In this document: in pieces, positions 19,340 to 50,760 of the stretch
Layout of the letters: each line of letters opens with the position of its first letter
Numbering within the stretch: the first letter of the stretch is position 1
Source of the DNA: Candidatus Thorarchaeota archaeon
Lineage (GTDB): Archaea > Asgardarchaeota > Thorarchaeia > Thorarchaeales > Thorarchaeaceae
DNA length: 64,000 nucleotides
Direction of reading: 5' to 3'
Assembly (NCBI GenBank): GCA_021498125.1
Contig: JAIZWL010000001.1
Coordinates: 197,434-261,433, forward strand
The notes under the pieces: model-generated
What the model was told of the DNA's origin: nothing
Databases searched by the model: none
Seen by the model: only the letters and a program-made list of their open reading frames with translations
Position numbers and translations under genes: made by a program

Positions 19340-19548
19340 TCCTATCTCCAAGCTAACTATGGTTAGCTTAACGCCTAATAGTCTTTTGTACCAATTATAC
19401 AATGCCCTGGTGTGAGTTGTTTGTGTTTTTCCAATCAAGTGATTATTACGTAGACGCATATACAAGTACAAAAGGGATTTAGTTTCCGATAATATTGGCG
19501 AGTTCTTAGAATACTGGTCAAGCTCGTCGATATAGAGGTCTGAGCGAA

Positions 19549-20283
19549 ATGGCTTTCGTAGCAACTAAAGACTCAGGATTTGAGATTATTCTGAAAGACG
19601 GTTTTAAGATTCCTCCGGGTTCGACCTTTATCTGTGGTTTTCATGGACTTGGTGAGGTCGGGTTTCTGAGCACTGCACATCTCACACGTGCATTAGACGC
19701 CCGTAGAGTCGGTTTCATCAAGACAGATATGCTTCCTCTGTTTGTATCAATGGAGAATGAAAAACTGGTTCTCCCCTTTGAACTGTATTCATACGAGAAC
19801 TTCATCTTTCTCGTGCCACGGTTTCAACCACATCAGTCCGAACAGTGGCAATTTATTGATCGTATTGCCCGATGGATTGTTGAAAACAAGTTTGAAGAGA
19901 TTCTCCTGCTTGGTGGTCTGGATGCCAGCTTTAAGGAGGATGATGAGGACATGCGCTGTGTTCCGACAACAGCATACAAAGATCGTTTGGACAAGTGGTC
20001 TATCCCTCTTCTTGAGGAAGGTCTATTCGTTGCAGGGCCATTAGCTCTTCTGCTTGCAGAGCTGGAGATGCGTGATTATCCCGGTCTTGGACTTTTGACT
20101 TATGCCACACGCGGCCGTCCTGATCCACGTTCTGCTGCAACCATGTTGCAAAAGATAAACAGTGTATATGGTCTAGATGCCAGCGTTGATCAGTTGCTTG
20201 AAGAGAGCAAGGAGATTGAGCGTCTGGAGAAGATGCGCAAGTCAATTGAGTCTGATGATCGTTCAACAGATATGTTCGTCTAG
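19549..20283 (+). CDS. PAC2-family protein (archaeal proteasome assembly chaperone-like, PbaB/PAC2)
   Basis: ICGFHGLGEVGFLSTAHL N-terminal glycine-rich signature and ~240 aa length are typical of the archaeal PAC2 family. Confidence 0.65.
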   Translation: MAFVATKDSGFEIILKDGFKIPPGSTFICGFHGLGEVGFLSTAHLTRALDARRVGFIKTDMLPLFVSMENEKLVLPFELYSYENFIFLVPRFQPHQSEQWQFIDRIARWIVENKFEEILLLGGLDASFKEDDEDMRCVPTTAYKDRLDKWSIPLLEEGLFVAGPLALLLAELEMRDYPGLGLLTYATRGRPDPRSAATMLQKINSVYGLDASVDQLLEESKEIERLEKMRKSIESDDRSTDMFV

Positions 20284-24956: not shown

Positions 24957-27900
24957 ATGACAGCCGCCACAATAACTCCAAGGCGTAAGATGGGTTTGAC
25001 TACAATTCTTGGTACAGTTGCTGTTATTGCGATGCTTATGTGGGGTACGGTCGTCTTCTTTCAGATTCAGACGGGGAACGTTAGGACTGAGATCCCCCAT
25101 GAGCGGTACAGCGATGTAGTTCCATGGCCCTACAACATCAACTGGGGCGGTTCGTCTACTAATTGGTTTGATAACATGGACTATAATCAACTCCCTCTCA
25201 ATCAGACATTACCCGATGATCTTCTAGAGCATCTTAATGACGTTATGTTTATCGAGTCACCCACAGAGCCGGTTCAGTTGTGGCGTTATGATGCTTACGA
25301 CGAATATACAGGTTCATCTTGGCAGAAGACTGATGCGGCAATGAGTAATGTGACTCTAAACCTGATAACCCGCTCAGAGGCTGAGGCACTAGGCAATACG
25401 ATTTACACCGTCTACCTGAATGTTACAGCGGGCCCAAATGTTGGAGCGGTTCGACTGCCCACATTATTTCCAGATGCGCTCATTATCCAAGACTCTTTTG
25501 TGACTGGCCAGATCGAGGATGGCCATTTTCAAGTTGATACTCCCTCCCGTCTGTTGAATTACGATCTATCTCTTGACGCGCTTGGCGTTGTACAGTTCCG
25601 TCCACTTCTCTCAGCCCCCACTGGGGAGCATGTTTTAGTCGCATATGATCTCACGTTCAGAAGTCAGGATCTCTCGTCAATAGCAGATAACTCTCTACGT
25701 GGTGATAGCTCACCCCCAGACATCTGGGCCATGTATGGGCCCTCCACTCTGGATGGTATTGACTTTACACAGCGCGTAATCGATAACATCTCACAATTTG
25801 AAGACTCTTCAGCGACCGCATTTCAGACAGCAACAACAGTGGCAACCTATTTCCAGACCAAGTTCAAACTGATAATGAATGCCTCTGAATATAATATCCG
25901 CCCCGAGGAAGGTCGAGAAACGACCGATTGGTTCCTCGAACGTGGTGGTGGACTGCCGATGGATTTTGCCAGCTCGTATTGTGTGTTCATGAGACATCTT
26001 GGTATTCCTGCTAGGTATGTTGCAGGATTTGCAGTTGGTGATGATCTTGGTGGCTATAGGGCCCTAAAGGTCCTGCATATGACCTTCTGGGCGGAGGTCT
26101 ATATTCCAACATCCAGCACAACTGGTGAATGGGTACAGATATTGCCACTACCACTGCCCTCTGGCTCCGGGACCGAGATTCCCATGAACACGCCGGGTGA
26201 ACTCAAGCTATATACTTGGGCAAACACTCCTCAGGGCTGGGTGGTCACTGGTGATGATTTTGTGATCAGTGCCCTGTTATTATCTGGTGGTGTCCCAGTT
26301 TCAGGGCAGCAGATCACTTTCCGCGATAACACCGACAATCACTTGATGGGGACCGCCATCATTGAGCAGGGTACTTTCCTACCCTTGGCAAATCTGACAT
26401 ATGCCTATCCTGACGATGCGACACCTGGTCTCCATAATATCTCTGCTATCTTTCAGGGCCCCACAGAACAGGTTGAGAACTTTACATACGTGTACGTTGT
26501 GGCACAACCTAATCCTTATTCTCCGAATGGCCCCTCCTCCCCACAATTTACTCTCAGTGAAACATATGATGTGGATCTTAGCCTAGGTCTAGACGACTAT
26601 GTTGCCTATTGGGATGACATCTTGCACGTTCATGGGGTCATGACCGTGGGTGGTGATCCTGTAGATGGCACGACCCTAAATAATGACCAGATTCGTATCA
26701 TGTGGGACGACTACTTCATGGGTAATGCGACCATTCAATCGGATGGTTCGTATGAACTGGACATTCCTCTAGACCCCTCAGATCATGTTCGAATGACTGT
26801 TGGAACACATGAGGTATGGTCGGAATATCTTGGTGAGTACAATTCTCAGGGCATTCCTATCTTATTACCCGCCCGATCCGCTGATAATTCGACTGTCGAC
26901 TTACAAGGTAACATTGCGCTTACGCTCACAGCGACGCCTTCTCCAGTGGCTCGTGGGGGTACCCTGCATTATGACGGTATTTGCGAGCTACGAAATGGGA
27001 CCATTCTGGTAGGCGAGACCATTGGGATCTTCTTCGACAGTACATGGATAACAGATGTGACCACAAACAGCACTGGTGGCTTTAGCTATGATTATATCAT
27101 TCCTGTTGCACAGCCTCTGGGAACTTTTCCAGCTCAGGCAAACTGGACTTCCTCCTATACAGGTATTGCAGGAAACTGGAGCAATACGGTCGATGTGGAA
27201 GTCCAACTTAAGGCAGCTTCACTGACTATCGATTCTACTCCAAAAGATCCTGATGTAGTCCATCCTTATGAAAAGATTACAATATTCGGGTATCTCACTG
27301 ATCAGCTTAATGGGTCTGGTCTGGTTGGGCAGGATGTTGATATCTATTGGGACACCGGAAGTGGTGCTGTTAAAATCGGCACAGCGACTACTGATGCCAA
27401 CGGCTATTACGAGTTTAATTATACGGTCACAGATGCTTATTTTGGATCAGTTGATTATTGGTCAGAGTATGTATCCAGTTCTCCCTCCTATGAGGGTGCC
27501 ACCTCTCCCACTCTCTCAATCACCGTGGAGAAGTGGGCTACCGATGTGACGATTTCCGTTTCCCCGTCTCCCGCGCATCCTGCTGAATTAGTAACATTCT
27601 CGGGAACCGTGTCTGTGCCGGATCAAGGATCACTTCTCGGAAATGCTCCCGTCACTATTTGGTGGCAAAATAGTACAAGTACCTATAATCTATCAGTGGT
27701 CTTAACAAGTGCGGCCACTGGTATCTACACGTACTCATATACAATTCCTCTTAATCACGAGTTTGGAACCATCAGTTGCTGGGCCGAGTTTGTATCACCT
27801 TGGGCTGCCTTTGCGGATGATGTTTCCGATATTCGATTACTGACTATTACAAACTATACCACCCATCTGAATATCACCTCTAATTCTACCGTATACCACC

Positions 27901-30900
27901 TTAATGAGACCGCTCATATCTGGGGATCTCTTACTTTTGAGAATGGCAGTCCTATCGTCGGTCGGCAAGTGGTCTTATCATGGACAAATGCCACCGATAC
28001 GTATTATTACACACTACTGACAGATAGTCAAGGACGCTACGATTTCTATTACAACTTCTCTCCATCCAAAGATGATGTTGGTACTGTTGATGTGAGCGTA
28101 TCCTTCACATCATGGACTCGATTGCACTCTGATGCTTCAGCTACTCTTGGCACGCTTACTGTGCAATTGTTCCAAGTCGATTTGACTGCTACTCTTGATG
28201 CCGCGGAATATCATCAAGACGAATCCATTACTGTTTCGGGGACATTGACCTTTCAGCATAATGGCAATCCGCTTGGTGGGGCAATGGTCACGATATATTA
28301 TAGGAATGCAACCAAACTTATGAACTTCACAAAATACACCGATGCGACTGGCGCTTATTCATTCCAATATAATTTGACGCTTGATGATGCTCTTGGAGCG
28401 ATCTACATCTGGGCTCAGTATACCAGTACTGATCCATTATGGACTGATGCTATCTCTGCAAATAGGACTGCAACAATAATTCTGTATAGGCTCTCACTCA
28501 CAACCCAGACTAATTCAACATCATACCATCTCAATGAGACCATATGGGTCTCGGGTCGATTGACATTTCAGCACAATGGTACTGCAATAGTAGGTGAGTC
28601 AATTACGATACATATGCAATTGAGTAACGGAACTCTCCTGACATATTCTGGTTATGTGACAAACTCTACGGGTTATTATAATTTCTATTACAACTGTTCT
28701 CCAACTAAAGACAGTACGACCACAATCACGATCTGGGCAACGTATACAAGCACTCAACAGCTCTGGGATGATGCATCCTCTTCTCCTGGGGTTGATGTGG
28801 ATCTGATTCTCTATCCACTTCAACTATCACTTACTGGTCCTGCGGCAGTATATCTTGATAATTCGGTCGTGTTGACAGGGAATCTAGCGCATCAGGGCGG
28901 ATCGCCTGAGTTGACTGGGAAATGGGTGCGCATCTATCTTCTTGAAGGAAGTACTTGGACCTACTTGGGCCAGTCACAGACCGACTCTAATGGCGATTAT
29001 CAATATGTGTACACATTTACACTCAGTCAGGGCGCAGGTGATTACACTTTCAAGGCAAACTACTCTAGCACTGATCCACTGACTGCCGATGCAGAGAGTA
29101 GCCCATTCACTGTGACTGCAATGCGATATGATGTCAATATTGATTTCACTGCAAGTCCTACTACCGCAAAACTGAACGAATCAATCTTTTTCTCAGTCCA
29201 TCTCTACTTCGACAATGGTACTGATATACAAGGAGAAACAATCCTCATTCGATGGAACAATGGTTCTCTTTATACATTACATTCAGAGACCACAAACAGT
29301 ACTGGTTGGATGAATTTTGTTTTTACTGGTTTCCAGGAGCATACAGTATGGACTGGTATCACTAGTTATGGTGAATTTTCAGGTTCCCGTCTGTACAACG
29401 CCAATTCATCAGCTCACATTGCTATAACTTTGGAACAATGGGTCACAGCCATTATTGGATACAATACTACTGGTGGGAGAACAGATTACTATGTCACAGA
29501 CTGGGTAGATCTCAGTGGCGGGCTCTATTATACCGAGCCAGCACCAGATGTCCCCCTACCATCCGCCACTATCACCCTTCTCTTTGATGGAACTCCTGTT
29601 GATTCAACAGTCACACTTACTGATGGCTCTTTCTCGATCTCGTGGATGATTCCAGAAAGTACATCCCCCGGTCTACACACACTCTCGGTGGCGTTTTATT
29701 CTCCTGATAACTGGATCGCTGACTCAACAGACTCGATTACCCTTAATATTAGTGCAATCACACTCGTATGGACGTTGTTTGTGAATCCGAATAATCCCGC
29801 CTACCTGAGTGATCATCTCAATATCTCTGGAACGCTCTATCTGAGCAATGGTTCACCGTACAGTGGTGCAGCTGTGAGCCTCTATTGGGATCATCTGAGT
29901 GATGGCTTGAGTCCGCTCTTTATTAGTCAGGTCCTTACACAACCTGATGGGTCCTTCGAGTATATTTTCACTATTGATGCTTCAACAACTACTGGCTTTA
30001 CGACCGTTTGGGCATCTTGTACTCCCTCAAGCTCGTATATTGTCGGCAGTGATTCGGAAACAGTGACTATTGAGATTCTGCCAATCCCTGTTAATTTGAC
30101 TCTCACGTATTTTGATGACTCAGCGTATGTGGGTGACACAATCAATCTGGGTGGCTCGCTGCACTGGGGGAACGGTACTGGTTCGGCCATGGTGGGATAT
30201 ACAATAGCCCTCCTCTGGTCCGGGAGCCAAGTTGACTCTGTGGCCACAGATACCGATGGTGATTATGATTTCACATTTACAGTTCCTTGGGATAACTCAG
30301 TTGGGGTCATAACCTTTACAATTCAATTTGTGCGTCCTGATGCCTCTTTTGAGTCCGCAGAAGCCAGTGATTCTATCGAGATTTACAATCTTGTCACGAT
30401 CACGCTTAATCCGCAAAGAGTGACCGTCGTCTATCGTGGTGATCAACTAATTGTGAACGGGACTGTGACTAATACACATGGGCCAGTCCAAGATGTACCG
30501 CTTGTCCTATTAGTCGATGGTGCTCCCACTAGTGTGACTACAACTACACTTAGTCAAGGGGCCTTTGTACTCACCTATTCGGTTCCGAGTGATCTTCCTC
30601 TTGGCCCGCATACATTCAGCGTGAACGTGACCAATTTCTACTACGAGTTGAGTGGGGCTGTGGGCACATGGGATGTGACGGTGAAATTACAGAGTATATT
30701 GTCTGTCTACGTAGATCATACATATACGGTCACAACTGGTGAGAATTTCAGCGTCAGTATTCGGCTCACAGATTCCGATGGCAATTTAATTGCTGGGGTA
30801 GTGCGCGTCTATCTCAATAATTCCCTTCTCTCAACTGAGAATATTGATTCTGGCGCATGGGTGGTTATTGAGTTTCAAGTTCCGTCATCCATTTCAGCAA

Positions 30901-31742
30901 GTGGCTATTATGTTGTGAGTGCGGAATTCGATGGTATCGAGTCTTCATATATTGATGGCTCAACTGCTGAAGGGGAGGTACCTATTCATATCTTCACTCA
31001 AGTGGTCTTCACATCCTCTGTTGAAACAGTTCAGGTGGCGGGATCACAACTCGTCATTAGTGGACAACTCACTGACGACTCGCCAAATGCAATTCCTATT
31101 GTTGGACGTAGGCTCACGATAGCTGTAAATGGGACCACTTACACAGCAACAACAGGTGATGATGGTTCTTTCTCAGTAGTGATAGCTCCTCGAACGGTTG
31201 TGGGTATCTATGAGGTTTCTATTGAAGTTCCAACTGAAACGAATCCTATTTCAGTTTCAAGATTTACGATCCAAGTTCAAGCTAATACAGGTGGTAATAT
31301 GCAACTAGGTGATTTGTTAATTCCAATTACTGCTCTGGCAGGTGCAGTTATCGCGGTTCTGCTGTATCTTTACTTCGTCAGAGGTTTCTTCCATCCCTCT
31401 AAACGAGTGGGTGGTGTGGACATTCCAAGTAAGCTTCGCAACATCAAGAAGCTTGCAGATGCCGGAAAGTATGATGCTGCAGTGACTCTTGCATATCGTA
31501 CCTTTGAGCAGATGTGTGGATTGAAAACGGGCACAGAGCGTCTCAATTCTGAAACGGCTCGTGAATATCTTGACCGGGTACTCAAGTCATTGCCTCTTGA
31601 TGCTACTGCTATTGATCAGTTTGTGAATATCTATGAAGAGGCACGGTTCTCACAGCATGAGATCACACGAGGTCAGTATGAAGAAGCAGTCCGTATCTTT
31701 ACCGATCTCTATCCGCGTTTAGATGTTGGAACAACCGACTGA
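24957..31742 (+). CDS. Giant (2261 aa) TgpA-like surface protein. It has an N-terminal signal anchor, a transglutaminase-like cysteine-protease core, about 15 tandem ~100-aa Ig-like/carboxypeptidase-regulatory-like repeats rich in N-x-S/T sequons, a C-terminal TM helix and a cytoplasmic DUF4129-like tail.
   Basis: TGc core ASSYCVFMRHLGIPARYVAGFAVGDD. The repeat motif ...YHLNET...SG.LTFQHNG...G..V.I...N.T...Y.TDS.GxYxFxYN... recurs from ~aa 600 to 2050. C-terminal TM LIPITALAGAVIAVLLYLYFV is followed by a YRTFEQMCGL...AREYLDRV...ARFS tail. Confidence 0.8.
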   Translation: MTAATITPRRKMGLTTILGTVAVIAMLMWGTVVFFQIQTGNVRTEIPHERYSDVVPWPYNINWGGSSTNWFDNMDYNQLPLNQTLPDDLLEHLNDVMFIESPTEPVQLWRYDAYDEYTGSSWQKTDAAMSNVTLNLITRSEAEALGNTIYTVYLNVTAGPNVGAVRLPTLFPDALIIQDSFVTGQIEDGHFQVDTPSRLLNYDLSLDALGVVQFRPLLSAPTGEHVLVAYDLTFRSQDLSSIADNSLRGDSSPPDIWAMYGPSTLDGIDFTQRVIDNISQFEDSSATAFQTATTVATYFQTKFKLIMNASEYNIRPEEGRETTDWFLERGGGLPMDFASSYCVFMRHLGIPARYVAGFAVGDDLGGYRALKVLHMTFWAEVYIPTSSTTGEWVQILPLPLPSGSGTEIPMNTPGELKLYTWANTPQGWVVTGDDFVISALLLSGGVPVSGQQITFRDNTDNHLMGTAIIEQGTFLPLANLTYAYPDDATPGLHNISAIFQGPTEQVENFTYVYVVAQPNPYSPNGPSSPQFTLSETYDVDLSLGLDDYVAYWDDILHVHGVMTVGGDPVDGTTLNNDQIRIMWDDYFMGNATIQSDGSYELDIPLDPSDHVRMTVGTHEVWSEYLGEYNSQGIPILLPARSADNSTVDLQGNIALTLTATPSPVARGGTLHYDGICELRNGTILVGETIGIFFDSTWITDVTTNSTGGFSYDYIIPVAQPLGTFPAQANWTSSYTGIAGNWSNTVDVEVQLKAASLTIDSTPKDPDVVHPYEKITIFGYLTDQLNGSGLVGQDVDIYWDTGSGAVKIGTATTDANGYYEFNYTVTDAYFGSVDYWSEYVSSSPSYEGATSPTLSITVEKWATDVTISVSPSPAHPAELVTFSGTVSVPDQGSLLGNAPVTIWWQNSTSTYNLSVVLTSAATGIYTYSYTIPLNHEFGTISCWAEFVSPWAAFADDVSDIRLLTITNYTTHLNITSNSTVYHLNETAHIWGSLTFENGSPIVGRQVVLSWTNATDTYYYTLLTDSQGRYDFYYNFSPSKDDVGTVDVSVSFTSWTRLHSDASATLGTLTVQLFQVDLTATLDAAEYHQDESITVSGTLTFQHNGNPLGGAMVTIYYRNATKLMNFTKYTDATGAYSFQYNLTLDDALGAIYIWAQYTSTDPLWTDAISANRTATIILYRLSLTTQTNSTSYHLNETIWVSGRLTFQHNGTAIVGESITIHMQLSNGTLLTYSGYVTNSTGYYNFYYNCSPTKDSTTTITIWATYTSTQQLWDDASSSPGVDVDLILYPLQLSLTGPAAVYLDNSVVLTGNLAHQGGSPELTGKWVRIYLLEGSTWTYLGQSQTDSNGDYQYVYTFTLSQGAGDYTFKANYSSTDPLTADAESSPFTVTAMRYDVNIDFTASPTTAKLNESIFFSVHLYFDNGTDIQGETILIRWNNGSLYTLHSETTNSTGWMNFVFTGFQEHTVWTGITSYGEFSGSRLYNANSSAHIAITLEQWVTAIIGYNTTGGRTDYYVTDWVDLSGGLYYTEPAPDVPLPSATITLLFDGTPVDSTVTLTDGSFSISWMIPESTSPGLHTLSVAFYSPDNWIADSTDSITLNISAITLVWTLFVNPNNPAYLSDHLNISGTLYLSNGSPYSGAAVSLYWDHLSDGLSPLFISQVLTQPDGSFEYIFTIDASTTTGFTTVWASCTPSSSYIVGSDSETVTIEILPIPVNLTLTYFDDSAYVGDTINLGGSLHWGNGTGSAMVGYTIALLWSGSQVDSVATDTDGDYDFTFTVPWDNSVGVITFTIQFVRPDASFESAEASDSIEIYNLVTITLNPQRVTVVYRGDQLIVNGTVTNTHGPVQDVPLVLLVDGAPTSVTTTTLSQGAFVLTYSVPSDLPLGPHTFSVNVTNFYYELSGAVGTWDVTVKLQSILSVYVDHTYTVTTGENFSVSIRLTDSDGNLIAGVVRVYLNNSLLSTENIDSGAWVVIEFQVPSSISASGYYVVSAEFDGIESSYIDGSTAEGEVPIHIFTQVVFTSSVETVQVAGSQLVISGQLTDDSPNAIPIVGRRLTIAVNGTTYTATTGDDGSFSVVIAPRTVVGIYEVSIEVPTETNPISVSRFTIQVQANTGGNMQLGDLLIPITALAGAVIAVLLYLYFVRGFFHPSKRVGGVDIPSKLRNIKKLADAGKYDAAVTLAYRTFEQMCGLKTGTERLNSETAREYLDRVLKSLPLDATAIDQFVNIYEEARFSQHEITRGQYEEAVRIFTDLYPRLDVGTTD

Positions 31743-31764: not shown

Positions 31765-33168
31765 ATGATGAATCCGAAGAAGGCTCTCTGGATTGTTTTA
31801 TTCGCCCTTTCTTGGATTCCAGTCGGGATGCTGTTCGTTTCAAATGTGTCGAATGTTCCCGATGTCTATCCTCAGGACTTCAGCATCTATAATCAGGGCT
31901 GGAATGGATTGAGTACGTTCAGAGAAGACATAGAATCTATGGGCTATACACCTGTTGCCATTCAATCGTCGATGAGTGTTGTCACACGATATGAGGGCAA
32001 TGCTGTTCTTGTCATCACGGGTCCCGTTCGTGACTTCTCTATTGATGCAATATTTGTCATCTTTGATCATTTAATGAATGGCGGCAGCGTTGTGATAGCC
32101 GATGATTTTGGGACTGCGAATGCCTCCTTTGCATTGCTTAATACTTTGATTTCCGGTCAGGTCACCGAGCATGCTCCCGTTCCAGTTCATGGTATTCTCT
32201 CTTATACCGGTGGTGTTCTTCTCGATCTGAACTCGTACGACAAGAGCCCGAAGCTTCCTATCATCACCGATTTTCGTCCCGGACTTGATGGTGGTGCCTT
32301 GACCGTTGGTGTTTCCAGTCTGCATCTAAATTGGGCCACTGCAATCAATCCGCGTTCGGCATTGGGTCTGGCAGGTATAGCATGGACCTCCGAACGATCA
32401 TGGTGCGATCGAAATATTACCGACCCCAATCCGTATCCTGATGATGGTGAATGGAATGGTTCCCTGCCAGTGGTTGGGGCTCTAGATCTTGGAGGGCTGG
32501 TTGGTGATGGTTCGCGTGGGGGTCGCATTGTTGCGATAAGTGACCCAAGTATCTTTACAAATGATATGATTAATCGTGGTGATAATCGTCAATTTGCTCA
32601 TAATGTGATTAATTGGGCTACTCATGGAGAGCAGAATCAGACAATTGTTTTCTGCGAAAATCTACTTGCAGTGCCATGGTACGCACCCGAATTCTTCTTT
32701 GGATTATATCTTAGTCGAGTTATCTGGCTGTCGACGCTCCCATTTGTATCATTCCTTTATCCTTTTGTTACGGTTGTGGGAATAAAGAAATACCTGCCAG
32801 ATATGAAGAAACCCGAGGTAAAAGCGGTTTCAGAGGTGTTCTTGCGTCGGGGGCAGACATATTTCAGTGAGCGTATGGCCTATTACAGGACTGAGGGCAA
32901 TTATGCCCGTGTAATTAAGATGTTATATCGTAAATTGCGGCGCGATATGAAACGAAAGTATCTATGGGCCGAGTATGATTCACAAAAAGTATGGGATCTT
33001 CTCAAAGCAAAAGATCCGAAATTGAAACGAAATGATTTCTTTAAGACGATAACGCGTATCGAGAAGATAGCAGCAAATCCCGCCATGAAAATTCATGAGA
33101 ATGAGATGATGGATTTGTTCTTCTTCATGCGCAATATACAGAACAAACTTATCGCTACAAAAAAGTGA
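31765..33168 (+). CDS. DUF4350-like membrane-anchored protein (N-terminal and C-terminal TM helices), an accessory subunit of MoxR/DUF58 systems
   Basis: Topology (N-terminal TM, large extracytoplasmic domain, C-terminal TM LSTLPFVSFLYPFVTVVGI, basic tail) and a position immediately upstream of MoxR-DUF58. Confidence 0.45.
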   Translation: MMNPKKALWIVLFALSWIPVGMLFVSNVSNVPDVYPQDFSIYNQGWNGLSTFREDIESMGYTPVAIQSSMSVVTRYEGNAVLVITGPVRDFSIDAIFVIFDHLMNGGSVVIADDFGTANASFALLNTLISGQVTEHAPVPVHGILSYTGGVLLDLNSYDKSPKLPIITDFRPGLDGGALTVGVSSLHLNWATAINPRSALGLAGIAWTSERSWCDRNITDPNPYPDDGEWNGSLPVVGALDLGGLVGDGSRGGRIVAISDPSIFTNDMINRGDNRQFAHNVINWATHGEQNQTIVFCENLLAVPWYAPEFFFGLYLSRVIWLSTLPFVSFLYPFVTVVGIKKYLPDMKKPEVKAVSEVFLRRGQTYFSERMAYYRTEGNYARVIKMLYRKLRRDMKRKYLWAEYDSQKVWDLLKAKDPKLKRNDFFKTITRIEKIAANPAMKIHENEMMDLFFFMRNIQNKLIATKK

Positions 33169-33178
33169 GGTAATAGAT

Positions 33179-34165
33179 ATGACTTTAGACGAGACTGACA
33201 CAATGGGCGGTGGTTCTGTCGATGCATTAAGCATTGATGAGGTCCACAGTTTGACAACCGAGATCATCCGTGAGGTCCAACGAGTGATCGTTGGCAAGAC
33301 GGACATCCTACGGGACTGTCTGATTGCAATGTTGTCCAATGGTCATGTTGTGCTTGAAGGTGTTCCGGGTCTTGCAAAGACGTACATGGCTCGGACTTTT
33401 GCGTCCATTTTGGGATGCCAGTTCAAACGTATACAACTCACCGTGGACACACTCCCTGCGGACATTCTTGGTAGTAATGTTTTCAATCAGCGCAGTGGCG
33501 AATTCTGGTTCAGGAAAGGTCCAGTATTTGCCAATCTGGTGCTTGCAGATGAGATCAACAGATGTCCCCCTAAATCTCAGAGTGCACTGCTCGAGGTGAT
33601 GGAAGAACGTCAGGTCTCAATTGAGGGTGTGACACGAAAGTTACCTGAACCGTTTCTGATCATTGCCACTCAAAACCCTGTGGAGCAAGAAGGCACCTAC
33701 CCCCTGCCTGAGGCACAGCTTGATCGGTTCATGTTCCGTCTGATTCTTGATTATCCTACTAAGAGTGAGGAGGCAGAAGTCATCAGACGTAAACATATTG
33801 GTGAGGCAACTGACCTGCGGGTTCTAGCGGATCCGGAAACCATTGTTCGGATGCAAAACACCTGTAAAAAGGTATACATCGATGATGACATCATCACTTA
33901 CATTCGAGACCTCATTGTTCGCACCCGAAATGACCCTCAAATTCTTCTTGGTGGTTCCCCTCGGGCCTCCCTCGTACTTATGAGTGCATCAAAGGCACGT
34001 GCAGCCATGCAAGGGCGTGATTACGTCATTCCCGAGGATGTACGAAAGCTCGCAATTCAGACTCTCAACCATCGGTTATTACTTAAACCCGAGGCTGAGC
34101 TCGAGGGAATGACTGTAGAACGTGTCGTGTCCAAGATACTAGGTGAAATCGACTGTCCCCGATAG
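33179..34165 (+). CDS. MoxR-family AAA+ ATPase
   Basis: VVLEGVPGLAKTYMARTFASILG Walker A, hhhhDE Walker B (LVLADEINR), sensor regions; 328 aa. Confidence 0.9.
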   Translation: MTLDETDTMGGGSVDALSIDEVHSLTTEIIREVQRVIVGKTDILRDCLIAMLSNGHVVLEGVPGLAKTYMARTFASILGCQFKRIQLTVDTLPADILGSNVFNQRSGEFWFRKGPVFANLVLADEINRCPPKSQSALLEVMEERQVSIEGVTRKLPEPFLIIATQNPVEQEGTYPLPEAQLDRFMFRLILDYPTKSEEAEVIRRKHIGEATDLRVLADPETIVRMQNTCKKVYIDDDIITYIRDLIVRTRNDPQILLGGSPRASLVLMSASKARAAMQGRDYVIPEDVRKLAIQTLNHRLLLKPEAELEGMTVERVVSKILGEIDCPR

Positions 34166-35528
34166 ACTCTATCGGTCACATACTGTTCACTGGAGACGAT
34201 ATGCTGTGATTACTAAGAGAGGCTTTGTGGTTCTGTTCGGTGGCGTTCTTTTACTGACAAGTGGATTCGCCTACATGAACTTCTATCTCACTATGATAGG
34301 GGTATATCTATTGGTCGGTCTCGTTGTTACATTACCTCTTTTTGCACTTACTGCAAACCTCTCGGGGATTGAAGTGGAGCGCCAGATAGACAAGGGAAAG
34401 GTCTTTTCTGGTGATTTTCTACGGGTCCGTGTCACAATCAAGAATGTATCTCACAGGCATTTCGACTTCATTGAAATCTGGGATCAATATCCCGAGACTT
34501 GGATATTGGCCATTGGTGAGAACTTTATAGCATCGCGAATCGAACCTGGAAGTAGTATTACCTTCTCCTATATCTTGCAAGCGCGAATGCGTGGTCGATA
34601 CTATATTGGCCCTACAGAGGTCATTATGCGCGATCGTCTGGGTCTACACTACTACAAACGAACTCTAAAGGCACGTACTGAGATTCTCGTATATCCTACT
34701 TGGAAAGATGTACGCAGAATGGAGTCACTTGGCAAGCAGAGGCAGCTTGGTCTCATGTTTGGAGCTCACAGAACAAAGACAGTTGGTATGGGCACGGACT
34801 TTGCAGGGTTCCGTGATTATGTTCCTGGAGATGCTTTTCGGCTCATTGATTGGAAGGCAAGTGCTCGTCGTGGTAAGATGATTGTTAAACAGTTCGAGAT
34901 GGAGAAGAATATTCAGATCGTGTGTATGATTGATACGTCAGGTAGTATGGGTAATGGCTATCCTGAAAACACCAAATTAGAATATGCAATTCGTGCTGCT
35001 GTTCTTCTCTCCTATATGGGAATTGAACGAAAAGATCTTGTTGGAACCTGTGTATTCTCCGATAAAGTGCATACATTTGTCCCGCCAAGTCTAAAGCCTA
35101 ACCATATGTTTGAAGTATTGGAATCATTGGCCCTTGCTGAACCAATAGGCTGGAGTAATTTTCCAGAGGCAGTGGAGTATGTCACCCGACAGCTCACAAA
35201 GCGTACTCTATTCATTTTTCTCACCGATTTGGAGGAGAGCCCGGGGCCACTGCTGACTGCAATGAAACGGGTTATTGCAAACGGGCATAAGGCCCAAATT
35301 ATCAGCCCGTTTGGTCCTTGGTTCGAGGCGCCTGTAGGGCAGTTTGGTCCAGTAGAACGTGTTCTTGCTGAGGCTGTTCAGGAGGAGCTCTGGGAGCGTC
35401 GTAGTAAGATCGCACGAGCCCTATCACGTTTTGGTATTGATGTTGTAAATGTCGGCCCAGAAGACTTCCTGCCTGTGATCATTAAGCAGTACAATTTGGC
35501 AAAGCAAAGGGGGGTTGCACTACATTGA
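34143..35528 (+). CDS. DUF58-family protein with a von Willebrand factor A-like domain (MoxR partner)
   Basis: N-terminal TM pair, DUF58 core, MIDTSGSMG MIDAS-like motif; overlaps the moxR stop. Confidence 0.8.
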   Translation: MKSTVPDRLYRSHTVHWRRYAVITKRGFVVLFGGVLLLTSGFAYMNFYLTMIGVYLLVGLVVTLPLFALTANLSGIEVERQIDKGKVFSGDFLRVRVTIKNVSHRHFDFIEIWDQYPETWILAIGENFIASRIEPGSSITFSYILQARMRGRYYIGPTEVIMRDRLGLHYYKRTLKARTEILVYPTWKDVRRMESLGKQRQLGLMFGAHRTKTVGMGTDFAGFRDYVPGDAFRLIDWKASARRGKMIVKQFEMEKNIQIVCMIDTSGSMGNGYPENTKLEYAIRAAVLLSYMGIERKDLVGTCVFSDKVHTFVPPSLKPNHMFEVLESLALAEPIGWSNFPEAVEYVTRQLTKRTLFIFLTDLEESPGPLLTAMKRVIANGHKAQIISPFGPWFEAPVGQFGPVERVLAEAVQEELWERRSKIARALSRFGIDVVNVGPEDFLPVIIKQYNLAKQRGVALH

Positions 35529-36910
35529 AGATAGTCACATGGATTCTGCGTATTCTATCCACCACAACTTTTGTCTATATGTGCTGGATTGTCTATAACC
35601 AGTTATCGGGTTATTGGGACTGGGCCTCTCCCTACACTTTCATTGTGACCGTCTTTCGTGTTCTCTCCCTCATATTGTTCTTTGTGACCATTATCGTGGT
35701 GAATGGTATAGCCAGTATAGTACTGGGAGGGCATATGGCCAATAGCTTGGTTGTAGGTCTCTATAACTCAATGGCACTCCACTTCTGGTATCTCCAACCA
35801 TACGGTTCCCATGGTCCTCTTACTGATGTCTATCAAGTATTTCAAGTGTTTTCGACACAGATCTTTGATTTAGCTTTTCAGTTATGGGATGACACCTTTA
35901 CATTTCTGTATTTTCTCTTTGCAGGAATTGGTATTGCGATGTTTTTGCAATCTCTATTTCGAATGGAACACAAGTTCGTTGGAGGTGCCTTTCTCTCCAT
36001 TCAAGCAATTCTTATTGTGGCCGCCTTTCGAGATTTGCCCATTTATGGTGGCTCCCCTCCCTCTGGTGATTTTCTCACCTTTCTCGCGTCCGGTATGCAG
36101 ATCTTGGCAATCGTGTCATTTGCATATCTCGAATTCAGTTACCAAATGATTTACAGCTACTCCGTAGGGAAACCCGTTGAAGACCGGGAAGAAACATTGA
36201 AGAAGCAACTGTTAGCTTTGCGGTCAGCCACCCGCCGCCAAGACGCTATAGAGCGTGGGGAGCGAACGTCCTCTTCAACAATGAGTCGAACAACTGGCGC
36301 AACTGCATTTTCATTCTTACGTGAGGTCATCGAACGAAAAATCATCGGTAGTCACAAGGCGCTTGAAAATCTAGATGCGATTAGTGATGTACGGCGTCTG
36401 AATATCTATGTAGATGAATTACTTGCAACAGATTCCTCTGCTCGTGACGAGCTCACCGCCAAAGCTGCTACTCCCTCTTCAGCTTATGTGATCAGTTCTA
36501 CAATCATTGGGTCTGTCATCCGGTTTCTCAGTGTGGTGGCAGTGTCCTTTTTCCTTCTAAATCCTGCATTTCTCATGAATCTCCTTAATCTCCCTCCCGG
36601 AATTCGTAACAGTGTAGAGCTACAGCAACCTGAGATTGTTGTGCTCTTTCTAGTGCCAGTATTGCTCACCTTTGCCTTTGCAGCGGCCATGATAACTTGG
36701 TTGTCACAAGAAAGGTTGGAAGACGAGCCCAAATTGAGCCGTGAGGAAAAACGAAGTCTCCGGAAACGCAGAAAGGAATTGGAGCGTAAGATGCGAGAAC
36801 TTGAACGTGCTCGACGCGAGCGATTCAAACGTTGGAGAAAACGCAAACGAAAGCCGGATGCCGAAGAAGATGAATGGGATCGCGCATTAGATGAAATCTA
36901 CAAGTCATGA
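35525..36910 (+). CDS. Polytopic membrane protein with a C-terminal highly basic coiled-coil tail (possible membrane partner of the TGase/MoxR system)
   Basis: Multiple TM helices in both halves; C-terminus KRSLRKRRKELERKMRELERARRERFKRWRKRKRK; translationally coupled to the DUF58 gene (overlapping stop/start). Confidence 0.55.
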   Translation: MKIVTWILRILSTTTFVYMCWIVYNQLSGYWDWASPYTFIVTVFRVLSLILFFVTIIVVNGIASIVLGGHMANSLVVGLYNSMALHFWYLQPYGSHGPLTDVYQVFQVFSTQIFDLAFQLWDDTFTFLYFLFAGIGIAMFLQSLFRMEHKFVGGAFLSIQAILIVAAFRDLPIYGGSPPSGDFLTFLASGMQILAIVSFAYLEFSYQMIYSYSVGKPVEDREETLKKQLLALRSATRRQDAIERGERTSSSTMSRTTGATAFSFLREVIERKIIGSHKALENLDAISDVRRLNIYVDELLATDSSARDELTAKAATPSSAYVISSTIIGSVIRFLSVVAVSFFLLNPAFLMNLLNLPPGIRNSVELQQPEIVVLFLVPVLLTFAFAAAMITWLSQERLEDEPKLSREEKRSLRKRRKELERKMRELERARRERFKRWRKRKRKPDAEEDEWDRALDEIYKS

Positions 36911-49263: not shown

Positions 49264-50760
49264 CTATCTCCTATGTCTGAGATAGATGACTATGGCAATG
49301 ACAATGACAATGGAGGTTGTGATTACAAGTACCGCCAACCATGTGGAGTCTGGATTCTCTGTGGGAACTGTTGTAGTGTTTGTGGTAGTAGTTGTAGTTG
49401 TCACTGATGTGGTGTTTGATACGGTGGTCATGCCATACGCATAGAACACGTCCATCTCGTTATTTCGCCCATCTGCCCAGGCGACATGTACACGATTACT
49501 ATCGTCGACTTGGATGCCCAAATATTCTCCCGGCCTTGAAAATACATTTGAAGTGTGTTCGCTGGCTATCGGAATCTCCGCTCCGAATTGAGGCGTAGTT
49601 CTATTGGTTCCTGTAAATGATACTCTTCTATAGACTGGGCGATAGTATGCCCCCTCTTGACTATAGTATGCAATATGCAAGTTTCCGGTCTTGTCAATTG
49701 CTAACTCGGGGTTCCATTGATCTCCACTGGTCCTATCGTTGACTCTGATTCTATCGCTCCACGTCATGCCCTTATCGTCAGAATATCGAAGATATACGTC
49801 AAATGTTTCTGTGTCGGGATACGTGTCGGCCCAGAGTAGATAGAGTCTGCCATGCTCGTCAAACCGTAGTACTGGCAAGGTCACTCTACTGGGATGGTTA
49901 TCGACGTTTCTAAACCGTGCGTATTTACCATCAGTATTTACAATAGTATCATTCCCAAAGCTGGCTCCGCCATCCTGACTGCGATCGAACAGAATGTTTC
50001 CATACTCACTGTCCGCAACCCACGAAATATGTCCATGCCACATACACAACTCCATCGTTGTCGATTGCCAAGTACGGCCCGACGTGGCCAGCCTCTGCAG
50101 AGTCGGAGATATTTGCAACATCAAAGAACATCCCCCGTCATTTGTTGATTTGGAGAGCTTGACTGTGACATTTCCGTTGTTGGACATATCAACGTCATCA
50201 TATGCAATATAGATTGTTCCATTCTTTGAGATTGCCATAGTTTCCTTATCCGCAAAATATGCTCCATATGATGCGCAGGCAAGATCCCATGTTGTACCAT
50301 TATCTTCGCTCTTTGCCAACGTTATCTGTGAAAAACTCGAGTAGGTCCCATATTCCAAGTATGCATAATATATGACTCCATCACGCCATACCATCCATGG
50401 GTCTGATTGTCGTGTGTTCTCGCTTCCAAAATCCCTCATATCCACAGGTTTGCTCCATGTTCTACCACTATCCGCGCTTCTGACCCAGCTTACTGAGGCG
50501 CCTCCTCCATTATGTGTTTCTGAATTTTTCCAACCTATGTATATCTCATCGGGGTTTCCGAGTGCCATTGTCACCTCGACATGGTGTGCATATCGTGTAT
50601 CGTCTGTTGAGAGCAAGACGTTGTGTGAGAATGCAACGATCTCCTCTCCTGTCTGTGCGAGCTGGTATGACCTGTTGCCTCTGTCTGGTACAGACTGCAA
50701 TGGACTTACTGTGGATATTACGAGAAAGATTGCAACACAAAGCAGGACCTTATTATTCAT
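49264..50760 (-). CDS. BNR/Asp-box repeat (sialidase/sortilin-like beta-propeller) surface protein with a poly-Thr stalk and C-terminal TM anchor
   Basis: Four SxDxGxTW Asp-boxes (SADSGRTWS, SEDNGTTWD, SQDGGASFG, SDDKGMTWS), signal peptide, TTSVTTTTTTTNTTTV linker, terminal TM helix and RHRR. Confidence 0.7.
   Translation of the reverse strand: MNNKVLLCVAIFLVISTVSPLQSVPDRGNRSYQLAQTGEEIVAFSHNVLLSTDDTRYAHHVEVTMALGNPDEIYIGWKNSETHNGGGASVSWVRSADSGRTWSKPVDMRDFGSENTRQSDPWMVWRDGVIYYAYLEYGTYSSFSQITLAKSEDNGTTWDLACASYGAYFADKETMAISKNGTIYIAYDDVDMSNNGNVTVKLSKSTNDGGCSLMLQISPTLQRLATSGRTWQSTTMELCMWHGHISWVADSEYGNILFDRSQDGGASFGNDTIVNTDGKYARFRNVDNHPSRVTLPVLRFDEHGRLYLLWADTYPDTETFDVYLRYSDDKGMTWSDRIRVNDRTSGDQWNPELAIDKTGNLHIAYYSQEGAYYRPVYRRVSFTGTNRTTPQFGAEIPIASEHTSNVFSRPGEYLGIQVDDSNRVHVAWADGRNNEMDVFYAYGMTTVSNTTSVTTTTTTTNTTTVPTENPDSTWLAVLVITTSIVIVIAIVIYLRHRR

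Follow-up and report, generated by a model that had tools for sequence, protein, structure and literature searches.

This locus raises the question of what a giant gene, with a transglutaminase-like domain followed by a long array of Ig-like repeats, could provide to a Thorarchaeota cell, and whether its product can be an enzyme at all. The gene occupies positions 24957..31742 (+) of the window (the whole stretch of 64,000 nucleotides analysed), and the ORF list and translation gave a single unbroken ORF with an ATG start; its 2261 aa agree with the initial annotation. The product has the layout of a bitopic protein, with a first TM helix (TM1), a TgpA-like head, 16 Ig-like repeats, a second TM helix (TM2) and a DUF4129 tail. 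An independently assembled Logan contig encodes the identical 2261-aa protein, which is also recorded in NCBI as a Thorarchaeota MAG protein.

Colinear alignment was obtained for 82 homologues, nearly all from Thorarchaeota, and dozens of MAGs carry colinear full-length orthologs of 2000-2700 aa. Species-representative genomes contained 66 loci of the gene, again nearly all in Thorarchaeota. It is found at a single locus in every genome examined except one, and this locus is syntenic, with housekeeping genes around it.

Topology and the transglutaminase-like head

Kyte-Doolittle hydropathy found hydrophobic segments at aa 17-35 and aa 2120-2138 and nowhere else, and the roughly 2080 residues between them are predicted to lie outside. 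The first is the hydropathy peak of a short, basic, cytoplasmic N-terminus with TM1 (24957..25061 (+), aa 1-35), and the second is TM2 (31314..31370 (+)), a long helix in the model. Three Pfam families matched above their curated cut-offs: Transglut_core at aa 291-394 (E 1.1e-12), CarboxypepD_reg (PF13620) in the repeats (E 6e-18) and DUF4129 at aa 2179-2246 (E 4.6e-13). Together with hydropathy, this domain annotation, which had been proposed as a check, bears out the earlier layout of an N-terminal anchor, one C-terminal TM helix and a DUF4129 tail.

In the orthologs, a hydrophobic stretch of some 25 residues comes after a basic n-region (RRR/KRK). TM1 is probably an uncleaved signal anchor, because a stretch of this length favours an anchor that is retained. 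Cleavage of TM1 decides the architecture of the protein; without cleavage it would be a double-anchored loop, and with cleavage a single-anchored stalk with the head in a distal position.

The extracellular head (25062..26252 (+), aa 36-432) comprises a conserved juxtamembrane motif, a beta domain and the transglutaminase-like core. When its AF2 model (pLDDT 74.9, pTM 0.76) was searched with Foldseek, the top match was the periplasmic domain of TgpA, 6g49 (E 4e-12, 340 aligned columns), with a TM-score of 0.61 on the target. The family profile also matches 6g49 (E 2e-4), which is the best sequence match as well.

The Transglut_core match (PF01841; 25827..26138 (+)) has a degenerate active site according to Pfam, PDB alignments and hmmalign. 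The initial annotation had placed a catalytic Cys in SSYCVF, with His and Asp downstream, but alignments to TgpA 6g49, 3isr and canonical domains put Pro334, Thr376 and Leu396 at the canonical Cys, His and Asp positions, so that sequence and profile alignment, along with the secondary structure of the model, give no Cys-His-Asp triad. Pro334 (codon 25956-25958 (+)) sits at the position of the nucleophile, a column that is Pro in 82/82 orthologs; in the same 82 orthologs the catalytic His column is variable and never His, and the catalytic Asp column is always I, V, L or M. The canonical domains found with the same profile carry C/H/D at exactly these columns in hmmalign. Judging from the alignments and the model, the head most likely keeps the transglutaminase fold and has lost all three catalytic residues.

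It could still be argued that the protein is an active extracellular transglutaminase or cysteine protease, in which Cys342 and downstream His/Asp residues cross-link or cleave envelope proteins and the Ig array positions the enzyme. The Pfam match above cut-off would fit this, as would the in vitro transglutaminase activity of TgpA, the nearest solved relative (PMC3507681), the retention of Cys342 in 73/82 orthologs and the invariance of His374. However, apart from the replaced triad columns, Cys342 lies mid-helix in the model, eight residues into the core helix (residues 299-312, where residue 299, the helix start, is Pro334), and it is replaced by Ser, Ala or Thr in 9 orthologs. We therefore consider an active enzyme very improbable. 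The cross-linking role that had been suggested is unlikely because the triad is absent, and, with all catalytic residues lost, a structural or binding component is most likely. Near the former active site, His374, Glu380 and Arg346 are each found in 82/82 orthologs and Asp336 in 79/82, and together they may make up a new site for catalysis or binding.

The Ig-like array and its sequons

The array (26253..31277 (+), aa 433-2107) consists of 16 tandem Ig-like/CarboxypepD_reg-type beta-sandwich repeats of about 105 aa each, as determined with a self-built repeat HMM. The array was thus described correctly in the initial annotation, although its count of about 15 was not, and the motifs it listed were recovered (YHLNET twice, TFQHNG twice and the TD..G.Y.F.YN type seven times). 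Identity between repeats averages 22% with a maximum of 43%, and TRF did not find a DNA-level tandem repeat in the array; by their sequences, the repeats are old and diverged. In the colinear ortholog alignment they are orthologous domain by domain, without homogenisation. A lineage-specific insertion (28188..28829 (+), aa 1078-1291), recognised by its gap pattern, is missing from the majority of orthologs of about 2040 aa (gaps in 54 orthologs of 2000-2080 aa), and R6, R7 and R8 are among the most alike repeat pairs (34-43%).

Mis-assembly sometimes affects very long repetitive ORFs in MAGs, and in principle the assembly could be chimeric or collapsed at this locus, or the gene could be a pseudogene. 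This reading has next to no probability given the identical product of the independent Logan contig, the colinear full-length orthologs in dozens of MAGs and the insertion, whose 214 aa cover almost exactly two repeats (approximately R7 and R8). Collapse of the repeats is no concern because TRF showed no DNA-level tandem repeat, and neither the frameshift nor the collapse about which the initial annotation had been cautious was found in the intact ORF.

The number of repeats was compared across relatives, as had been suggested. Thorarchaeota orthologs have 14-20 repeats, while proteins of other Asgard classes share the layout with about 5-6 repeats in 1150-1210 aa, in agreement with the earlier description of an expanded array. 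In Thorarchaeota the array may have grown from about 6 domains to 14-20, with the lineage of the window gaining two further repeats by duplication.

The abundance of N-x-S/T sequons that had been noted was also confirmed, with 52 observed against 22 expected from composition, a 2.4-fold excess (z-score 7.5; 0/2000 shuffles reached the observed count), while the other 38 ORFs of the window have an observed/expected ratio of 0.95. All of the sequons are extracellular, with none in the cytoplasmic parts and 47/52 in the repeats, and 19 fall in alignment columns with a sequon in at least 70% of orthologs. The excess and the conserved columns make N-glycosylation of the protein, earlier called probable, plausible, and the glycosylation is probably heavy. 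An Asgard archaeon has been shown to glycosylate N-x-S/T sites, and putative S-layer proteins were not detected in the sole Asgard proteome studied (PMC11284389). Protruding surface proteins were seen on the Asgard envelope, which is without an ordered S-layer (PMC9834061).

The operon, the DUF4129 tail and the proposed function

The giant gene is the first of a tight five-gene operon, whose later genes are separated by 10-22 nt or overlap. Gene 2 (31765..33168 (+)), which adjoins the giant gene in all related loci examined, encodes an arCOG01314-type DUF4350 protein (Pfam E 5e-12, with a weak ABC_transp_aux/GldG-like match), and its hydropathy indicates an N-terminal anchor, an extracellular domain, a TM helix at about aa 320-340 and a basic cytoplasmic tail. 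Gene 3 (33179..34165 (+)) encodes a cytoplasmic MoxR-family AAA+ ATPase (Pfam AAA_3 E 4.6e-63, AAA_lid_2) with intact Walker A (GVPGLAKT) and Walker B (LVLADE) motifs. The DUF58/vWA product of gene 4 (34143..35528 (+); Pfam DUF58 E 1e-31, VWA_2, BatD) has, by hydropathy, an N-terminal two-TM hairpin followed by Ig-like and vWA domains; the MIDAS motif (DTSGS) is intact, and the vWA domain is predicted to be cytoplasmic from hydropathy and positive-inside reasoning. Gene 5 (35525..36910 (+)) encodes a conserved polytopic membrane protein with about 6 TM helices by hydropathy; it has a charged loop, and its C-terminal tail is very basic. It had no match in Pfam, NCBIfam or PADLOC and belongs to no known family, and it aligns with gene 5 at the loci of Thorarchaeota, Hodarchaeota and Baldrarchaeia. 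Three other Thorarchaeota loci retain the operon in synteny, and Hodarchaeota and Baldrarchaeia carry it with a shorter giant protein (1184-1194 aa, about 6 repeats). A defence-system search gave no match. With 6g49 as the top structural match and DUF4350, MoxR and DUF58/vWA genes next to it, the TgpA-like protein does stand in the MoxR-DUF58 context that had been predicted.

The cytoplasmic DUF4129 tail (31371..31742 (+), aa 2139-2261) is a helical bundle and the most conserved region (0.70, against 0.66 for the transglutaminase core and 0.5-0.66 for the repeats). The bundle is unfused from the giant protein in 12/68 full-length orthologs, and at the two unfused loci examined a separate TM-plus-bundle gene lies directly downstream of the giant gene; stand-alone TM-plus-bundle proteins are common in Thorarchaeota. 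From the gene order, the predicted topology and this fusion/fission pattern, we infer a contact between MoxR/vWA and DUF4129.

The tail, which has a HEPN-like fold, also resembles eukaryotic Spigot/C1orf43 (Pfam NICE-3), a subunit of the BLTP1/LPD-3 lipid-transfer complex. In both, a single TM helix leads into a helical bundle in the cytosol. Taken by itself, the tail reaches 23.5 bits with NICE-3 (cut-off 22.7), and 18/30 Asgard tails match NICE-3 at E <= 0.05. HEPN bundles score as well as NICE-3 for the tail, a PDB search with the tail profile did not recover Spigot at E <= 10, and NICE-3 had no match at E <= 0.1 from full-length proteins of other Asgard classes or from actinobacterial DUF4129 proteins. 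The partner of Spigot is a lipid-transfer protein, in contrast to the MoxR system of the window protein.

We propose, with moderate confidence, that the giant protein derives from TgpA, has no enzymatic role and, as a surface glycoprotein, forms the extracellular part of a five-protein membrane module conserved across Asgard archaea. The head would be a binding or scaffolding pseudo-enzyme, and the glycosylated Ig array would form a loop if TM1 is uncleaved and otherwise a long stalk, and could be part of the coat that has been seen to protrude, without order, from the surface of Asgard cells. A cytoplasmic MoxR hexamer with its vWA adaptor would grip the DUF4129 handle, possibly also the DUF4350 tail, and ATP would power the assembly, maturation or remodelling of the complex, in the way that MoxR-vWA pairs act on other targets.

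Another possibility is an adhesin or receptor, in which a long glycosylated stalk presents the head, a pseudo-enzyme that binds a ligand, so that the cell can attach to other cells, such as syntrophic partners, or to a substrate, and the tail signals occupancy to MoxR-vWA. The long Ig-like array would suit this, with the head at the tip of a 16-domain stalk if TM1 is cleaved, and there is a weak match to an NCBIfam adhesin repeat (E 8e-4, below cut-off). Furthermore, the FN3 protein of the bifidobacterial MoxR-DUF58-TGM cluster was described as adhesive (PMC8430577), and protruding surface proteins connect the protrusions of Asgard cells (PMC9834061). However, the hydrophobic run of TM1 favours retention of the anchor, by which the head would be kept close to the membrane, and typical fast-evolving adhesins would not be expected to show domain-by-domain orthology without homogenisation or DNA repeats. 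The single syntenic locus (one genome excepted) amid housekeeping genes and the repeat-by-repeat conservation disfavour the variable form of the surface adhesin suggested initially, and we regard this reading as unlikely.

A somewhat smaller probability is given to a secretion or membrane-remodelling machine, with DUF4350 (GldG-like), MoxR and vWA as the drivers of export or of membrane shaping and the giant protein as cargo or stator. A putative complex of this kind has been proposed for the same set of DUF4350, COG0714 MoxR, Ig-vWA and Ig-like membrane proteins (PMC5898192), and the GldG-like match of DUF4350 and the polytopic membrane protein would be consistent with it. Nevertheless, the operon contains no channel-forming or translocase family and no outside ATPase, the chaperone-type AAA+ MoxR being its only ATPase, and the giant protein has its own TM anchors and would enter the membrane via the Sec/YidC route.

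Comparison with known systems

A transglutaminase/papain-like fold that was kept for binding after loss of the catalytic triad is known from Rad4/XPC and erythrocyte band 4.2, which are eukaryotic and intracellular and have an architecture unrelated to that of the window protein. The mycobacterial and actinobacterial Rv3689-Rv3695 cluster resembles the operon in its DUF4350 (Rv3691), MoxR (Rv3692), DUF58 (Rv3693) and polytopic membrane proteins, and presumably includes a DUF4129 gene. Actinobacterial DUF4129 proteins, the next-best relatives of the tail, differ in their size of about 240-270 aa and have neither a transglutaminase head nor an Ig array. A cluster of the Rv3689-Rv3695 type is co-regulated in M. 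chelonae (PMC8191103).

The bifidobacterial PFNA cluster (pkb2, fn3, aaa-atp/MoxR, duf58, tgm; PMC8430577) likewise combines MoxR, DUF58, a membrane transglutaminase-like protein and an FN3 beta-sandwich protein. In that cluster, FN3 and TGM come from two different genes, alongside a Ser/Thr kinase, whereas in the window a single gene combines the beta-sandwich array with the transglutaminase-like part, without a kinase.

In the available portion of the account by Makarova, Galperin and Koonin (2015, PMC5898192), the arCOG01314 neighbourhood has a membrane-anchored DUF4350 protein, a COG0714 MoxR ATPase and an Ig-like plus vWA protein, alongside membrane proteins with extracellular Ig-like domains. 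These Ig-like partners are predicted S-layer-type proteins of other arCOGs, and the word 'transglutaminase' is absent from that portion on the neighbourhood. In the window, by contrast, the place of the partner is taken by a TgpA-derived pseudo-enzyme with a fused DUF4129, and the vWA domain is predicted to be cytoplasmic, not secreted.

In Pseudomonas aeruginosa, the tgpA operon encodes MoxR (PA2875), DUF58 (PA2874) and TgpA (PA2873) (PMC3507681). Both operons contain MoxR and DUF58, and both proteins have an extracytoplasmic beta domain and transglutaminase-like core, followed by a TM helix and a C-terminal DUF4129. The TgpA layout of the initial annotation therefore stands for the head, TM2 and DUF4129, but not for the N-terminus, as the 668 aa of TgpA begin with five TM helices (DUF3488/TgpA_N) and include no Ig-like array, and TgpA retains a Cys-His-Asp triad with transglutaminase activity in vitro (PMC3507681). 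The window protein instead has one N-terminal TM helix, 16 Ig-like domains between the core and TM2 and no triad, and its operon has DUF4350 and a polytopic membrane protein in addition.

A giant protein with two TM segments and a sequon-rich repeat array

The ORF at 24957-31742 (+) is single and unbroken from its ATG start and encodes a protein of 2261 aa (the giant), and the same protein sequence was found on an independently assembled Logan contig (SRR15988961_313). At NCBI it is deposited under the name 'DUF4129 domain-containing protein', and its source is a MAG of Candidatus Thorarchaeota. Pfam placed Transglut_core (PF01841) at aa 291-394 (E 1.1e-12, 48.7 bits against a cut-off of 23), and CarboxypepD_reg repeats (PF13620, E 6e-18) and DUF4129 (PF13559, aa 2179-2246, E 4.6e-13) were also found above their curated cut-offs. 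By hydropathy, there are only two membrane-spanning segments, TM1 at aa 17-35 and TM2 at aa 2120-2138, which agrees with the N-terminal signal anchor and the C-terminal TM helix proposed in the initial annotation. Rfam (gathering threshold) and ARAGORN gave no matches over the window.

The basic n-region of TM1, followed by approximately 25 hydrophobic residues, suggests an uncleaved anchor. If TM1 is not cleaved, the ectodomain would be a loop tethered at both ends; if it is cleaved, the 16 domains would form a stalk that carries the head at its far end. Next to TM1, a juxtamembrane motif (VR...PH..Y.....WPY; aa 36-75, window 25062-25181) is at least 90% conserved in the orthologs. It was modelled with very low confidence and may be a contact site for another subunit.

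Approximately 15 Ig-like repeats had been proposed for the region between the anchors. The array was confirmed, but the count was not, as a self-built repeat HMM detected 16 units (R1-R16) over aa 433-2107 with a period of ~105 aa. These units and the PF13620 match place the repeats among CarboxypepD_reg/Ig-like beta-sandwich domains; matches to Big_1, MG2 and MG4 were below the Pfam cut-off. The motifs quoted for the repeats were all recovered (YHLNET twice, TFQHNG twice and seven TD..G.Y.F.YN-like strings). The units share a mean identity of 22% (maximum 43%) and Tandem Repeats Finder detected no tandem repeat in the gene DNA, which indicates that the array is ancient and not prone to assembly collapse, and the latter result rules out a recent repeat expansion or collapse. 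The majority of Thorarchaeota orthologs are ~2040 aa long, and the window protein has one extra block at aa 1078-1291 (window 28188-28829). This block of 214 aa equals two repeat lengths and spans about R7 and R8. As R6, R7 and R8 are among the most similar repeat pairs, a two-repeat duplication probably occurred in the lineage of the window. In other lineages, proteins of 2362-2702 aa carry ~18-20 units.

The abundance of N-x-S/T sequons was confirmed, with 52 observed against 22 expected from composition (z 7.5), a number reached by 0 of 2000 shuffles. All 52 are located between TM1 and TM2, and the observed/expected ratio was 0.95 for the remaining 38 large ORFs of the window. At 22 alignment columns a sequon is present in at least 70% of the orthologs, and the window protein has one at 19 of them. 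Each repeat has a mean column identity of 0.5-0.66 among orthologs, and this conservation, together with the conserved sequon columns, argues that the repeats are not a freely varying spacer. The extracellular sequon excess kept in the orthologs supports the earlier suggestion that the giant is a glycoprotein, and in its predicted sites the ectodomain was shown to be glycosylation-ready. N-x-S/T glycosylation is used by one Asgard archaeon (PMC11284389). Elsewhere in the window, a 498-aa protein at 49264-50760 (-) with weak matches to BNR/sialidase-like beta-propellers has the second-highest sequon density (8 sequons, 1.6 per 100 aa), so that a further glycoprotein may be encoded here.

The transglutaminase-like head

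Sequence and fold both place the head in the transglutaminase-like superfamily, through the PF01841 match and a model that matches TgpA, the P. aeruginosa membrane transglutaminase (PA2873), the cysteine protease structure 3isr and, weakly, TG2. The AlphaFold2 model of aa 36-450 had a pLDDT of 74.9 and a pTM of 0.76. Its best Foldseek match was the periplasmic domain of TgpA (6g49; E 4e-12, 340 columns, TM-score 0.61 on the target), and 3isr came next. The family profile also matched 6g49 (E 2e-4), with an additional aligned N-terminal segment, 'qlWR..yD...W'. The transglutaminase fold is therefore retained in the modelled head.

The initial annotation had also proposed a catalytic Cys-His-Asp triad, which is contradicted by the alignments. 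The nucleophile position was aligned by phmmer with aa 201-500 and by hmmsearch with a 20-sequence family profile, and both searches paired 'GGGLP334MDFA' of the giant with 'SGFC AHYA' of TgpA. The family profile paired the same segment with 'AGVC RDFA' of 3isr, so that Pro334 is found at the position of the nucleophile. When the matches from a profile search of 1.84 billion representatives were realigned to the same profile, canonical transglutaminase-like domains had Cys, His and Asp at columns 299, 341 and 361. In the window protein these columns are occupied by Pro334, Thr376 and Leu396. None of the 82 orthologs has a canonical residue at any of these positions: all 82 have Pro in the Cys column, the His column holds M, T, A, Q, V, I, L or S and never His, and the Asp column holds only I, V, L or M. 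In the model, the core helix starts exactly at model residue 299, which is Pro334. Cys342, the Cys of the proposed triad, was considered as an alternative nucleophile and rejected because it lies in mid-helix, eight residues in, and is kept in 73 orthologs but replaced in 9 (by Ser in 5, by Ala in 3 and by Thr in 1).

The residue-level alignments and the secondary structure of the model point to a catalytically dead head, and from the missing triad no transglutaminase activity is predicted. The reading of the giant as a cross-linking enzyme is therefore unsupported. His374, Glu380 and Arg346 are invariant and Asp336 is present in 79/82 orthologs, so a repurposed binding site is possible.

Proteins of ~1150-1210 aa from other Asgard archaea (P0094-P0125) keep the His and Asp, whereas their Cys is replaced by Ser, Ala or Gly, and one intermediate (P0090) has Asp, His and Glu at the triad positions. 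The decay of the active site is thus stepwise, and Thorarchaeota are without all three residues. The Ser-His-Asp variants found in some of the other-Asgard sequences could still be active.

A conserved Asgard operon and its cytoplasmic parts

The giant leads a compact operon of five genes, separated by gaps of 22 and 10 nt and then overlapping by 23 and 4 nt. The second gene (31765-33168) encodes a DUF4350 protein with an N-terminal anchor, an outside domain, a TM segment near aa 320-340 and a basic cytoplasmic tail. It is followed by a MoxR AAA+ ATPase (33179-34165; AAA_3, E 4.6e-63, with a far weaker bpMoxR Pfam match, E 1.6e-12) and a DUF58/vWA protein (34143-35528) with an N-terminal two-helix hairpin and an Ig-like and vWA part, which is predicted to be cytoplasmic from the positive charges ahead of the hairpin. 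Walker A (GVPGLAKT), Walker B (LVLADE) and the MIDAS (DTSGS, of the DxSxS type) are all intact, as in a MoxR-vWA chaperone pair. The fifth gene (35525-36910) encodes a polytopic membrane protein of 461 aa without a known family. NCBIfam gave only sub-threshold matches. PADLOC gave no match for any of the five operon proteins, which rules out a known anti-phage defence system, including the MoxR-vWA ternary systems.

The operon is flanked by housekeeping genes (HD, CYTH, a PALP enzyme, an NSUN-type methyltransferase, a Nip7-like PUA protein, PAC2, succinyl-CoA synthetase, TruD and an OPT transporter). The PAC2-family (proteasome-assembly-chaperone-like) gene, at 19549-20283 (+) in the window, precedes the module by no more than a few kb in loci from Thorarchaeota, Hodarchaeota and Baldrarchaeia (L002 4970-5713; L005 861-1655; L006 6830-7657), and Roadblock/LC7 genes are also near the module in the Hodarchaeota and Baldrarchaeia loci. 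Directly upstream of the Hodarchaeota module there is an Arf/Ras/Roc-type small GTPase gene (L005 9370-9909), preceded by a TrmB-family regulator. An 811-aa ORF upstream of the operon in the window (17129-19564, -) had no Pfam match, and neither had the fifth operon protein; a ~736-aa gene without Pfam match is at the syntenic position of this ORF in three other Thorarchaeota loci.

A full-length search returned 82 matches of 1260-2702 aa, the named ones mostly from Thorarchaeota, which are colinear and most conserved in the head and tail. A scan of species-representative genomes, using patterns specific to the Thorarchaeota-type clade, found 66 loci, nearly all in Thorarchaeota MAGs, and three other Thorarchaeota loci have the five genes one after another at the equivalent syntenic position. 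In the profile search there was a second tier of proteins of 1150-1210 aa, with named cluster members from Hodarchaeota, Baldrarchaeia, 'Asgardarchaeia' and Promethearchaeota MAGs. These have the same TM-head-repeats-TM-DUF4129 layout with only ~5-6 repeats, and both second-tier loci looked up (Hodarchaeota and Baldrarchaeia) carry the same five-gene operon. The linkage of MoxR and DUF58 is kept in 5 related loci, and the fifth gene can be aligned between Asgard classes. The family is present in essentially all sampled Thorarchaeota, and Hodarchaeota, Baldrarchaeia and further Asgard MAGs have it in a shorter form; we have shown that the giant is obligatorily linked to the DUF4350, MoxR, DUF58/vWA and polytopic membrane proteins among Asgard classes. 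On the complete Thorarchaeota chromosome CP070658.1 (L069, 742576-747079, and L028), the full locus is accompanied by a second place that matches head residues 250-414 only, at 54% identity, and could be a paralog or a fragment.

The TM-plus-DUF4129 tail is fused to the giant in 56 of the 68 full-length orthologs. In the other 12 (P0005, P0007-P0009, P0011-P0013, P0016-P0018, P0022 and P0027), the giant ends in its own TM and a short basic tail, and in the two such loci examined a separate TM-plus-DUF4129 gene of 147-149 aa is located immediately 3' of it (L002 16853-17302; L004 16837-17280). This pattern of fusion and fission argues that the giant and the DUF4129 part work together physically. 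Stop-codon read-through can be rejected for these split forms: the DUF4129 ORF is out of frame in one locus, both giants carry a TM anchor of their own, and both small ORFs have a separate start codon and TM. Stand-alone TM-plus-DUF4129 proteins of ~147-158 aa are abundant in Thorarchaeota. The split-form giants have a conserved Glu within the C-terminal TM hydrophobic span, e.g. IIGIEVVVAMII, through which a partner helix may pair.

The tail has the four-helix up-down bundle of HEPN domains and lacks the HEPN Rx4-6H RNase motif; it carries ARFSxHE (R-x3-H), in which the His is not conserved beyond Thorarchaeota. Spigot is the C. elegans ortholog of human C1orf43 and consists of one TM helix and an irregular four-helix bundle (bioRxiv 10.1101/2024.06.21.600134). 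With its 181 residues, chain B agrees with the Spigot model in that LPD-3 paper (residues 7-187) and was taken as Spigot for this reason. In favour of a link with Spigot, the isolated tail matched Pfam NICE-3 (PF07406) with 23.5 bits (cut-off 22.7), and 18 of 30 Asgard tails matched at E <= 0.05. Against it, NICE-3 was matched neither by the tails from other Asgard classes nor by DUF4129 proteins of actinobacteria, and Spigot was not among the PDB sequences found by hmmsearch with the tail profile. The link between the DUF4129 tail and Spigot/C1orf43 is a lead, not a finding.

Proposed role and comparison with known systems

We have shown that the giant is a bitopic protein with a transglutaminase-fold head that lacks the triad and a conserved cytoplasmic helical handle. 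MoxR-vWA pairs are ATP-driven maturation and assembly chaperones. By analogy, a cytoplasmic MoxR hexamer with its vWA adaptor would act on the cytoplasmic handle or handles. The target would be a glycoprotein complex outside the cell, which the pair would assemble, stabilise or remodel and to which the head of the giant could contribute a binding or scaffolding module. The tail would be a testable handle for a cytoplasmic AAA+ chaperone acting on an extracellular assembly. A role as a surface adhesin had also been suggested; a core envelope component fits better than a variable adhesin because of the fixed locus among housekeeping genes, the near-universal presence in sampled Thorarchaeota and the domain-by-domain conservation.

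Among prokaryotes, no group known is more closely related to eukaryotes than the Asgard archaea. Spigot/C1orf43 is the TM-plus-bundle subunit through which BLTP1, a bridge-like lipid-transfer protein, is docked to the ER. Its relationship with the DUF4129 tail, if real, would give a eukaryotic membrane-contact-site subunit a prokaryotic ancestry. Cultured Lokiarchaeia (one species imaged) lack an ordered S-layer and have protruding surface proteins, which are thought to mediate cell-cell contacts relevant to eukaryogenesis (PMC9834061). The giant family is conserved and offers a concrete candidate for a component of the Asgard surface. We consider it a long shot that the giant and its shorter Asgard versions are these long-sought protruding glycoproteins, as double-anchored or stalk-like pseudo-enzymes that are assembled or remodelled from within the cell by a MoxR-vWA machine through a membrane-tethered HEPN-fold TM-DUF4129 handle homologous to Spigot/C1orf43.

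Within the searchable literature library, no paper linking Thorarchaeota with transglutaminase-like proteins was found, and DUF4129 is mentioned in only 2 papers. The proposed TgpA layout in a MoxR-DUF58 setting held in part. Like TgpA, the giant has an extracytoplasmic beta domain with a transglutaminase core resembling 6g49, a TM helix with a C-terminal DUF4129, and an operon with MoxR and DUF58, as described for TgpA (PMC3507681). Unlike TgpA, it lacks both the triad and the N-terminal multi-TM DUF3488/TgpA_N domain: PF11992 had no match in the window protein, which has a single N-terminal hydrophobic segment, and other-Asgard homologs matched only profile positions ~160-297, below the cut-off. 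The widespread, functionally obscure TgpA/MoxR/DUF58 system may therefore run without transglutaminase chemistry, which would indicate a scaffolding or binding role.

The operon also matches the archaeal arCOG01314 (DUF4350)-MoxR-vWA neighbourhood of Makarova, Galperin and Koonin (2015, PMC5898192), where it was proposed to be a secretion or membrane-remodelling complex; a membrane-anchored DUF4350 protein, a COG0714 ATPase, an Ig-vWA protein and an Ig-like membrane protein are found together here. Bacterial parallels are the Rv3689-Rv3695 cluster of mycobacteria (PMC8191103) and the PFNA cluster of bifidobacteria (PMC8430577). We conclude that the giant works like, and descends from, TgpA/MoxR/DUF58 systems, and that it is an Asgard-wide, catalytically dead and Ig-expanded relative of TgpA.
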